Shown in pieces: positions 14,238 through 16,338 of a stretch of 43,724 nt of DNA. The position numbers and the translations under genes are program-made. This stretch comes from a virus. Taxonomy: Duplodnaviria > Heunggongvirae > Uroviricota > Caudoviricetes. Each line of letters starts with the position of its first letter. The first letter of the stretch is position 1. Location of the stretch: the IMG/VR virus record IMGVR_UViG_2529293015_000003. One strand, written 5' to 3'. Below the pieces are notes generated by a model. That model ran no database searches. It was given only the letters and a program-made list of their open reading frames with translations, and was not told the origin of the DNA.

Positions 14238-14318
14238 GCAGCCTGACGGCTGCGGCTTGTCATGGCCTGAAATTACCGTTATAAAAACAGACAATATCAT
14301 TGTCTTTCAGGTGGTTAA

Positions 14319-14666
14319 ATGGCCCGTTCAGCTAAACCTCGCAAACAAAAATCCCGCAAACAATCCACCCGCTCAGCCCCCCTGTTGCGATGGCGGGTGG
14401 TCCCCTGCGCCGGAGGAACAGATAATGAAGCCGGGCTGTTTTTTCCCGACTTCGCCAGTGCTGCCGATTACTGTATGGAGAAAGATATTCCATACCTGTT
14501 TGAAGAAGATGCCACCGGCAATTATGAAACAACAGTATGGATAGTTGGTGAGCCCGACGGTAATGTCACCATGCTCCCCATGTCCTGGAAAAATTTTCTG
14601 TCCGTGTGCACGATACATCCCTTTATCTGTCCGCAGTGCGGCACCTCACATCTTCCCCCTGCGTAA
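14319..14666 (+). CDS. IS91-family accessory ORF (upstream of tnpA)
   Basis: 115 aa ORF immediately upstream of the transposase, as in IS91/IS1294-type elements. Confidence 0.4.
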   Translation: MARSAKPRKQKSRKQSTRSAPLLRWRVVPCAGGTDNEAGLFFPDFASAADYCMEKDIPYLFEEDATGNYETTVWIVGEPDGNVTMLPMSWKNFLSVCTIHPFICPQCGTSHLPPA

Positions 14667-14669
14667 TTC

Positions 14670-15857
14670 ATGCTTCCCCGTTTTGCCGACATTTTTCAGC
14701 AGGGTAACCGCTGGCTTAACTGGCTGGAGAAGCAGCCGGAAGGCTCAGTGCGTCCGGTAGTCATTGAATCGGTGACAAAAATCATGGCGTGCGGGACCAC
14801 ACTGATGGGCTACACGCAGTGGTGTTGTTCATCACCGGACTGTTGCCATACAAAGAAGGTCTGTTTCCGGTGTAAAAGCCGCTCCTGTCCGCACTGCGGA
14901 GTGAAGGCCGGCGCACAGTGGATACAGTATCTGCTGAGTCTGGTCCCCGACTGCCCGTGGCAGCATATTGTGTTCACGCTTCCCTGCCAGTACTGGTCCC
15001 TGGTGTTCCACAACCGGTGGTTGCTGGCAGAAATGAGCCGTATTGCTGCGGATGTGATACTGGAAATCTGCCGCCAGGCGGATGTGGAGCCGGGGATATT
15101 CACGGTAATCCACACATGGGGCCGTGACCAGCAATGGCATCCACATATTCATCTGTCGACCACTGCCGGTGGCGTGACGTCAGCTCACACCTGGAAAAAT
15201 CTTCATTTTTACGCCCGTAAGGTAATGAGCATGTGGCGTTACCGGATAACGCGGCTACTGTCCCGGAAATATCCTGACCTGGTGATACCGGATGCGCTGG
15301 CAGCAGAAGGAAGCAGTAAACGGGACTGGAATCGCTTCCTGGACACGCATTACCGCCGTGGCTGGAATGTCAACGTATCCCGGGTGATGGATAACGCCAC
15401 ACATGTGGCAGTGTACTTTGGCTCTTACCTGAAAAAGCCGCCGGTGCCAATGAGTCGTCTGGAGCATTATGCCGGTCAGGATGAAATCGGACTGCGTTAC
15501 AACAGTCACCGAACAAAACGGGAAGAATACCTGTTGATGAGTGGAGATGAGTTCATGGAAAGGTTCTCCTGGCATGTGGCGGATAAGGGGTTCCGTATGG
15601 TGAGGTACTACGGTTTTTTGAGTCCGGCGAAACGGCAGTTACTGGAAGAAGTGGTGTACATCATTACGGAGACAGTGAGAAAAACGGCGATGCAAATCAC
15701 CTGGAGAGGGATGTATCAGAGGTTACTGAAGGTTGACCCGCTGAAATGCGTGCTGTGCGGAGGTCAGATGCGTTTTACGGGGCTGAAGCGGGGATACCGT
15801 CTGGCAGAGCTGGTCGGGATGCATGAGCCACTGGCCCGGATGCGGTGGTGCGGCTGA
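14670..15857 (+). CDS. tnpA: IS91-family HUH (Y2) transposase
   Basis: N-terminal zinc-binding CFRCKSRSCPHCG, HUH motif HPHIHLS, tyrosine motifs YFGSYLKK and RYYGFL. Confidence 0.85.
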   Translation: MLPRFADIFQQGNRWLNWLEKQPEGSVRPVVIESVTKIMACGTTLMGYTQWCCSSPDCCHTKKVCFRCKSRSCPHCGVKAGAQWIQYLLSLVPDCPWQHIVFTLPCQYWSLVFHNRWLLAEMSRIAADVILEICRQADVEPGIFTVIHTWGRDQQWHPHIHLSTTAGGVTSAHTWKNLHFYARKVMSMWRYRITRLLSRKYPDLVIPDALAAEGSSKRDWNRFLDTHYRRGWNVNVSRVMDNATHVAVYFGSYLKKPPVPMSRLEHYAGQDEIGLRYNSHRTKREEYLLMSGDEFMERFSWHVADKGFRMVRYYGFLSPAKRQLLEEVVYIITETVRKTAMQITWRGMYQRLLKVDPLKCVLCGGQMRFTGLKRGYRLAELVGMHEPLARMRWCG

Positions 15858-16338
15858 GAGCCGCATCGGGGAAGTTGCGTCCATTTTGAGGGAAACGGAG
15901 CAAAAAGCCGCCATTCATACCCTGAATCAATCAGAGCCATCCTGTTTAATCGTCGATTCTTTTCATATGGAGCAAAAGTGGTGTTGAAGAAACATCCGTT
16001 TTGTGGTGTTTTTTAATCTTTTTGGGGTTTTAATTCCTATCGATCGAGCATGTATTTCCGACCTATGCTGATGAGCAATGTACTCATGTTCTTACCGAAG
16101 AGGATTTTTTCAGCACTGAAGAACGAGAAGGCGTTGATCGTTGCATTGGTGTGATTTGCTCTTCAGTGAGTTATGAGTTATTCCCTAATGTCCATGAAAA
16201 TGGTGGTATTGGATACCAATTCCTGTACGAAGGCGATGAGCTTAAATGTTATTAAATGTTATGAACATGGTCTTCTTATCGAAAGCGTAGAATAATATGA
16301 CTTCCTTCCAACCGGCTTTGTTGGCCGGTTTATTCAAC

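Follow-up and report, generated by a model that had tools for sequence, protein, structure and literature searches.

What is the G+C-rich insertion beside the origin of this P1-like phage-plasmid, where does it begin and end, what did it do to its neighbours, and could it still move? The locus lies within a 43,724-nt stretch of viral DNA, which is referred to here in its entirety as the window. With high confidence, the insertion can be read as an apparently intact and probably active insertion sequence (IS) of the IS91 group that entered the gene upfA precisely and by both of its ends, 5' of a CGAG tetranucleotide and without duplication of the target. As such it is an ordinary, well-understood kind of event with little import beyond annotation: the limits of the element are fixed in a P1-like phage-plasmid, upfA is to be annotated as a pseudogene here, and the neighbouring origin is intact.

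The phage-plasmid and the insertion locus

The region of the window around the element is 95-99% identical to the P1-like phage-plasmids MH422554 ('Punavirus P1'), SJ46, RCS47, P7, and P1, and the 43.7-kb window is mostly colinear with MH422554, several variable segments excepted. The match to P1 ends at about position 16425, and those to MH422554, SJ46, and RCS47 run through repA. By these alignments, the window is identified as a P1-like phage-plasmid with a RepFIB/p0111-type replicon in place of the classical repA of P1 (IncY); the replicon types of P1-like phage-plasmids have been surveyed (PMC9603915). To the left of the element lie the Rz/Rz1-like genes ppfA/mlp (annotated as Rz1/Rz-like in relatives), upfB, and upfC, and to the right lie oriR and repA, in agreement with the position between a spanin block and oriR given in the initial annotation. 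The G+C content rises from about 43% outside to 52-57% over the element. The features of the locus are as follows.

14079..14230, + strand: 5' part of upfA, 100% identical to residues 1-52 of MH422554 UpfA
14231..16044, + strand: complete IS91-group insertion sequence of 1,814 bp, CGAGTAGGCAGCC... to ...AATTCCTATCGAT
16045..16285, + strand: remainder of upfA on the 3' side, starting with codon 52 and carrying a second lesion
16336..16554, + strand: origin region of the plasmid on the right-hand side of the element, intact when aligned with P1 oriR and MH422554
16336, + strand: DnaA box TTATCCACA in the origin region
within 16336..16554: cluster of five GATC sites in the origin region
16449-16554: five iterons with 21-bp spacing, of the D1/D2/D3 iteron family
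16631-17515: repA, with further iterons downstream

Judging from this alignment, oriR and repA, about 290 bp from the element, are untouched.

An uninterrupted homologue of the locus is available in MH422554, and comparison with it yields an empty site: in BLAST alignments, window positions 13400-14234 correspond to positions 1501-2335 of L001, and 16043-17600 to 2330-3875. This comparison gives an insertion of 1,814 bp whose edges are ambiguous by six bases (ATCGAG). The ambiguity is settled by five copies in unrelated flanks (L003-L007), which always start with CGAGTAGGCAGCC and always end with TTCCTATCGAT. The bases 5' of their CGAG vary, and those 3' of their CGAT are GAAC or CAAG. The invariant ends therefore place the element at 14231..16044; other copies are 1,811-1,829 bp long. 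The interval first proposed for it, 14238..15960, lies inside the element: it omits the first 7 bp and, at the other end, the last 84 bp, in which the oriIS end is found. The IS91-family terminal sequences that were expected to flank the transposase came to light in this alignment of other copies.

Transposase and accessory gene

The element consists of the following parts, to which the flanking target is added.

14231..14234, + strand: terIS cleavage tetranucleotide CGAG (bottom strand 5'-CTCG), the first four bases of the element
14238..14253, + strand: terIS subterminal hairpin GCAGCC-tgac-GGCTGC, a 6-bp perfect inverted repeat
14319..14666, + strand: accessory gene orf115 (115 aa), a diverged homologue of IS91 orf121
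14670..15857, + strand: tnpA (395 aa), an HUH/Y2 transposase with an N-terminal zinc-binding domain according to profile matches
15963..16044, + strand: oriIS end, the last 82 bp, ending ...TTTTAATTCCTATCGAT
16045..16048, + strand: target tetranucleotide CGAG abutting oriIS, non-canonical, GAAC or CAAG being common elsewhere

TnpA matches the NCBIfam model NF033538 ('IS91 family transposase') with an E-value of 6.6e-87 and a score of 291.8 bits (cutoff 125). Two Pfam domains are recognized, Zn_Tnp_IS91 at residues 17-104 (7.6e-19) and Y2_Tnp at residues 142-320 (1.5e-39). The expected motifs are all present, with HPHIH at 157-161 (HUH), YFGSY at 249-253 (two-tyrosine), and the CxxC pairs CFRC/CPHC at 65-76, and identity to the TnpA of other IS91-group elements ranges from 95 to 97.5%.

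An intact HUH/Y2 transposase with an accessory ORF upstream had been noticed from the outset, and both ORFs were found, the accessory one proving to be a strongly diverged homologue of Orf121. BLASTP aligns Orf115 and Orf121 colinearly over their full length with 26% identity (E 1e-10), and the two have in common an N-terminal M-x-RSAKPRK and a C-terminal CPxCGTxH. Orf121 restrains both transposition and one-ended events in IS91 (PMC13181058); by extrapolation across proteins only 26% identical, Orf115 may play the same regulatory role. The junction between the two genes also sets the element apart. It reads TAA TTC ATG, with a 3-nt spacer and no overlap, whereas the stop codon of IS91 orf121 (121 aa) overlaps the tnpA start by 1 nt (TGATG), an arrangement that is conserved in IS91, where it couples the expression of orf121 and tnpA (PMC13181058), and that is absent from the window element. 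A scan for consensus promoters between terIS and orf115 gave no match; TTGTCA and TATAAA separated by 17 nt can be picked out by eye at 14255-14283, but the second hexamer lacks the final T and the pair is rejected by the scan.

Ends and target site

The CGAG of terIS is invariant in all copies, and the bases that precede it vary. On the bottom strand it reads 5'-CTCG, the terIS cleavage site of IS91 mapped by experiment (PMC13181058). The adjacent hairpin forms in the folded bottom strand (-8.7 kcal/mol, z -1.8), and the left 89 bp of the element are identical at 86 of 89 positions to an Orf121-type IS91 copy. At the other end, the final 45 bp or so of oriIS hardly vary from copy to copy, and the right 82 bp as a whole agree with the Orf121-type copy at 67/83 positions; in IS91, the final 82 bp are enough for transposition (PMC13181058). 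A run of six T residues (T6) at 16009-16014 stands against T7-T8 in every other copy compared, and may reflect either a genuine mutation or an error in sequencing the homopolymer. The predicted fold of the oriIS bottom strand is no better than that of shuffled sequence (z -0.15); the palindromes in this end are imperfect, and the 'two imperfect palindromes' described for IS91 find no support here from folding energy. The two ends differ from each other, with CGAGTAGGCAGCC... on the left and ...TTCCTATCGAT on the right, and there are no terminal inverted repeats.

The tetranucleotide next to oriIS is not the GAAC or CAAG that the initial annotation had led one to expect. It is CGAG, a documented minor target of IS91. 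Among 35 distinct complete copies, sampled from genomes, viral contigs, and metagenomes, the target is GAAC in 19, CAAG in 12, CGAG in three (one of them the window's), and CCAG in one. The main targets of IS91 itself are 5'-CTTG and 5'-GTTC, and 5'-CTCG accounts for about 1% (12 of about 1,000 events); it was recovered at 3/277, 5/292, 2/50, and 2/240 in mating-out assays and ranks third in database copies (PMC13181058). A CGAG target makes mechanistic sense because 5'-CTCG is the site at which TnpA itself cuts terIS, and the window offers a clean natural case of its use. The preference appears to extend beyond the tetranucleotide. Across 94 distinct left flanks, the position just before the point of insertion is occupied by T in 62, C in 30, G in 2, and A in none; a pyrimidine at 92/94 sites points to a target longer than four bases, Y^GAAC/CAAG, which resembles the element's own ori junction.

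Relationship to named elements

Transposase profiles, HUH/Y2 motifs, both termini, and the lack of a target duplication all bear out the original assignment to the IS91 family. Within it, the element is best placed, from its alignments, in a minor IS91-group lineage without a name of its own, and it represents a known kind of element. To count as isoforms, two elements had to reach 95% nucleotide identity along their entire length, as in PMC13181058; the Orf121-type copies L033 and L027 served as proxies for IS91 (X17114), and ISEc37-like copies likewise for ISEc37.

IS91, the prototype, from alpha-haemolysin plasmids (X17114; PMC13181058), has the same layout (terIS - accessory ORF - tnpA - oriIS), the same terIS CGAG/5'-CTCG with its hairpin, the same right terminus ...TTCCTATCGAT, and the same target set of GAAC, CAAG, and minor CGAG, again with no target duplication. 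TnpA is about 95% identical to that of the proxy L033, but global nucleotide identity to this proxy is about 82%, below the isoform criterion. ISEc37 is the name given by NCBI to the IS91-like transposase on pECTm80 (L006). Against the ISEc37-like copy L008, identity is about 96.5% for TnpA and 94.5% for the DNA of element positions 440-1814 (tnpA and oriIS), and the termini are the same. By contrast, ISEc37-like copies encode an Orf121-type protein with an overlapping junction and are about 85% identical overall, again below 95%; megablast covers only element positions 1-127 and 440-1814 (about 83%), leaving about 128-439, the equivalent of orf121, unaligned.

Orf115-type copies on E. coli plasmids and chromosomes, such as pM172-1.1 (L003), are colinear with the window element over its full length and have the same 3-nt spacer and termini. 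In copies of the pM172-1.1 type, Orf115 is 94% and TnpA 97.5% identical at the amino acid level, but nucleotide identity is 91-93%, under the usual 95% isoform threshold. IS801, IS1294/IS1294b, and the ISCR elements also rely on an HUH/Y2 rolling-circle transposase, ori/ter ends, tetranucleotide targets, and one-ended transposition. They differ in having no accessory ORF and in their ter cleavage site, which is GTTC instead of 5'-CTCG. ISCR transposases are moreover about 500 aa long and their terIS is usually unrecognizable, whereas both ends can be recognized in the window element, and the ISCR clade Ia model gives the window TnpA a score of 18 bits (cutoff 925).

Of 5,426 complete E. coli genomes, 1,268 gave some IS91-group match and 64 contained the Orf115 lineage, which NCBI labels simply 'IS91 family transposase'. 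Full-length identity did not exceed about 93% for any copy in these 5,426 genomes or in 72,556 PLSDB plasmids. Megablast with the whole insert against 50,697 deposited phage genomes matched nothing, nor did an exact search of IMG/VR for the right junction; these collections therefore lack the insertion seen in the window. Only a look-up of the exact TnpA protein revealed it elsewhere: this protein is present on five public contigs, four of which share the upfA context.

Transposition and activity

The course of transposition can be modelled on that of IS91 and on the experiments reported for it (PMC13181058). TnpA would nick the bottom strand at the right end, which faces oriR, where oriIS meets the flanking tetranucleotide. 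The bottom strand would then be displaced leftwards through tnpA and orf115, until a second cleavage took place at the left end, after 5'-CTCG beside the terIS hairpin. The product would be a circle of the bottom strand with an expected ter-ori junction ...CCTATCGAT|CGAGTAGG..., and this circle would insert in a new target 3' of 5'-GTTC or 5'-CTTG, or rarely of 5'-CTCG. The functional circle of IS91 is formed by the bottom strand only (PMC13181058). The insertion in the window would have used the rare 5'-CTCG target, the same tetranucleotide as that cut by TnpA at terIS.

In IS91, termination fails in 1-10% of natural events, and in up to about 50% without Orf121, with transfer then running beyond terIS (PMC13181058). 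A failure at the terIS of the window element would take along the left flank, namely upfA', the Rz1/Rz-like mlp and ppfA, upfB, and upfC, and not oriR-repA: one-ended transposition would start at oriIS and run past terIS, so that the left flank would be co-mobilized and the replicon would not, short of a run-around of the whole plasmid. The earlier suggestion that the element could move the neighbouring replicon or lysis genes is thus retained, given the direction of the IS91 model, for the lysis side and given up for the replicon. If one-ended transposition occurred, it would be the Rz/Rz1-like genes and upfB that were exported.

The window copy is likely to be active, as suggested by the integrity of both ORFs and both ends and by a near-identical copy at a second locus. 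This copy (L039, GCA_053462845.1) is 99.9% identical and lies at an unrelated, plasmid-like site with a GAAC target, which points to recent mobility. Some features could lower the mobility of the window copy, these being the CGAG beside oriIS, the T6 run, and the lack of a significant predicted structure in oriIS. It could also be that the insertion reached the window plasmid by recombination with a P1-like plasmid that already carried it.

Among the alternatives, the one that survives best, though it is itself unlikely, regards the element as an immobile relic, structurally complete but trapped by its non-canonical tetranucleotide and by a 1-bp deletion in oriIS. CGAG does take the place of the GAAC/CAAG next to oriIS that has been described as essential for further transposition (PMC13181058), the T6 run departs from T7 in a conserved region, and the same insertion is fixed in four contigs. 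On the other hand, 5'-CTCG is the very sequence after which TnpA cleaves at terIS in every event analysed (PMC13181058). As for the T run, the contig L038, which carries the same insertion in the upfA context, differs from the window in a stretch of 11.2 kb by a single T, its oriIS having T7; T6 is thus private to the window and may be a sequencing error. Since both ORFs are intact, the termini are conserved, and a 99.9% identical copy exists at the second locus, the relic is disfavoured and an apparently intact, probably active element remains the preferred reading.

Far less probable is that an IS of 1,808 bp (TAGGCAGCC...CCTATCG) moved by conventional cut-and-paste or copy-paste transposition and left a 6-bp target duplication. 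ATCGAG can indeed be read at either edge (14229-14234 and 16043-16048). Fourteen further distinct copies, however, share an invariant CGAG...CGAT, differ in their flanks, and show no direct repeat; counting the window copy, none of the 15 is flanked by one. The repeat in the window arises on the left from the flanking AT and the element's own CGAG, and on the right from the element's terminal AT and the target CGAG. This alignment of other copies led to the rejection of a duplication, and the transposase is moreover of the HUH/Y2 and not of the DDE type. Least credible of all is that the insert arose by one-ended transposition or as a composite and carried DNA other than the IS with it into the phage-plasmid: IS91-family elements do give one-ended products at 1-10%, and more often without Orf121, but the insert is exactly one element long (1,814 bp, within the range of other copies) and starts precisely at the terIS CGAG, and the MH422554 empty-site alignment, colinear outside it, rules out such an origin for the window copy.

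Disruption of upfA

The precise two-ended insertion divides upfA, a gene without known function that encodes a protein of 130 aa in P1 and in MH422554. In the window, residues 1-52 are found at 14079-14234 and residues 52-120 at 16046-16252. The ORF of 52 codons at 14079..14237, which had been noted to stop at the edge of the element and proposed to be a truncated small gene, is indeed the 5' part of upfA, and its end is read from the element, which supplies the last codon and the stop (GAG TAG).

In the 3' part there is a further lesion: TTAAATGTTA, 10 bp long, is duplicated in tandem (16242-16251 and 16252-16261), which gives rise to a premature stop at 16253-16255. This duplication occurs in none of the 673 PLSDB plasmids that have the segment, the best full-length match being 96.5% identical, and an exact search for it in IMG/VR gave no match. 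It is consistent with decay of the upfA remnant after disruption of the gene. From these lesions, upfA is judged to be inactivated, and the consequences for the phage-plasmid are judged to be small.

A precedent is provided by JL22, a mitomycin-inducible phage in which upfA is interrupted by a 4.2-kb blaCTX-M-55 segment, and the repA-upfA region is one of eight variable regions in P1-like phage-plasmids (PMC9603915). JL22 is likewise P1-like with a p0111 replicon, and it is still inducible as a phage-plasmid with upfA disrupted (PMC9603915). It differs from the window in the nature of the insertion, an IS1380/IS5-blaCTX-M-55 segment at another position of upfA that brings resistance cargo, whereas the window element carries no cargo.

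Other IS91-group insertions in P1-like phage-plasmids

Three more independent IS91-group insertions are found in P1-like viral contigs, at positions equivalent to 11516|11517 (hrdC), 13068|13069 (upfB), and 26174 (bplB) of the window. The window brings the number of such sites in P1-like phage-plasmids to four; these phage-plasmids are of interest as carriers of mobile DNA and of resistance genes. The orientation of the four insertions flips across oriR, three on the left lying one way and one on the right the other, a pattern with a chance of about 1 in 8. All four place the bottom-strand tetranucleotide on the presumed lagging-strand template of forks leaving oriR. Elements of the IS200/IS605 type choose their targets in a strand-specific manner with respect to replication. 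That IS91-group targeting is likewise strand-specific with respect to replication, that the target is the longer Y^GAAC/CAAG, and that the Orf115 lineage, without the gene overlap, is perhaps regulated differently is, as a joint proposal, tentative and rather doubtful. Elsewhere in the window, the dmt gene holds a canonical intein of 340 aa.

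Target preference and distribution of IS91-group insertions

The bases to the left of the insertion point were counted in 94 distinct IS91-group copies (L003-L166). Directly 5' of the insertion point, T is found at 62 of these sites, C at 30 and G at 2, and A is never found (0 of 94). The second base 5' is A at 41 sites and C at 28, and the window's own left flank reads AT (14229-14230). Because the flank-base counts are skewed across the 94 sites, the target preference of these elements extends beyond the tetranucleotide, and can be written Y^GAAC/CAAG. This extended target resembles the element's own ori junction, ...GAT^. 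No statement of such an extension was found in the consulted text of the IS91 transposition study PMC13181058.

P1-like backbones carry three more independent IS91-group insertions, one each in upfB, hrdC/rdgC and bplB.

IS91-group insertions in other P1-like backbones (window-equivalent positions)
Between 13068 and 13069, in upfB: L024 (IMGVR_UViG_651053023_000001)
Between 11516 and 11517, in hrdC/rdgC: L028 and L043 (UViG_2534681832)
26174, in bplB: L023 (UViG_2675903433)

The three sites to the left of oriR, including that of the window, share one orientation, and the single site to its right has the opposite one. Targeting of the lagging-strand template would give such a flip across a bidirectional oriR, with the four sites being too few for a conclusion. 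In two further IS91-type copies on IMG/VR contigs, L025 and L027, the left flank is identical (GCTGTTTATCAT) and the right flanks differ (CCAG... versus GAAC...), which suggests either recombination between copies or rearrangement at one end.

Small sequence changes in the element and in upfA

The displaced 3' part of upfA contains a 10-bp tandem duplication at 16242-16261, where TTAAATGTTA occurs twice and leads to a premature stop. This duplication was found in none of the 673 PLSDB plasmids carrying the segment and nowhere in IMG/VR. Within the element, the T run of the oriIS region (16009-16014) is six nucleotides long. Its length is seven in L038, which has the same upfA insertion, and in L039, a copy located elsewhere, both being otherwise identical to the copy of the window, and seven to eight in the five other aligned copies (L003-L007). 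The T6 run of the window reflects either a 1-bp deletion private to this sequence or a sequencing error at the homopolymer.

An intein in Dmt and other features of the window

The Dmt methyltransferase of the window is 1,095 aa long and harbors a 340-aa in-frame segment that is additional to the Dmt of MH422554, the P1-like relative whose upfA is uninterrupted.

9756-10775, minus strand: intein, inside dmt (7722-11009)

This segment carries Hint and LAGLIDADG domains; it starts with a Cys, includes two LAGLIDADG-type motifs, and ends with HN followed by Cys, and is a canonical intein. Its insertion point immediately precedes the catalytic Cys in the PCQ motif of the C5-cytosine methylase (junction ...VVHN/CQAFS...). 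The same 1,020 bp recur in PLSDB, on 133 plasmids, and in 5 phage records, among them RCS47, Ro157c2YLVW and a P1 isolate, whose annotations name no intein, only dmt or DNA methyltransferase.

Two further genes were noted elsewhere in the window.

27804-28319, minus strand: Ail/Lom-like outer-membrane beta-barrel gene, within variable segment 26588-28478
17808-18617, plus strand: ORF of 269 aa containing a T5orf172 (GIY-YIG-like) domain, flanked by the repA/incA-like iterons and parA

Segment 31483-34070 has no alignment to MH422554, and segment 26588-28478 aligns to it only weakly and partially (81% identity over 260 bp). At the position of the T5orf172 ORF, no gene is present in the classical P1 record, the par region directly following incA. 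MH422554 contains the same DNA as the window, left unannotated.
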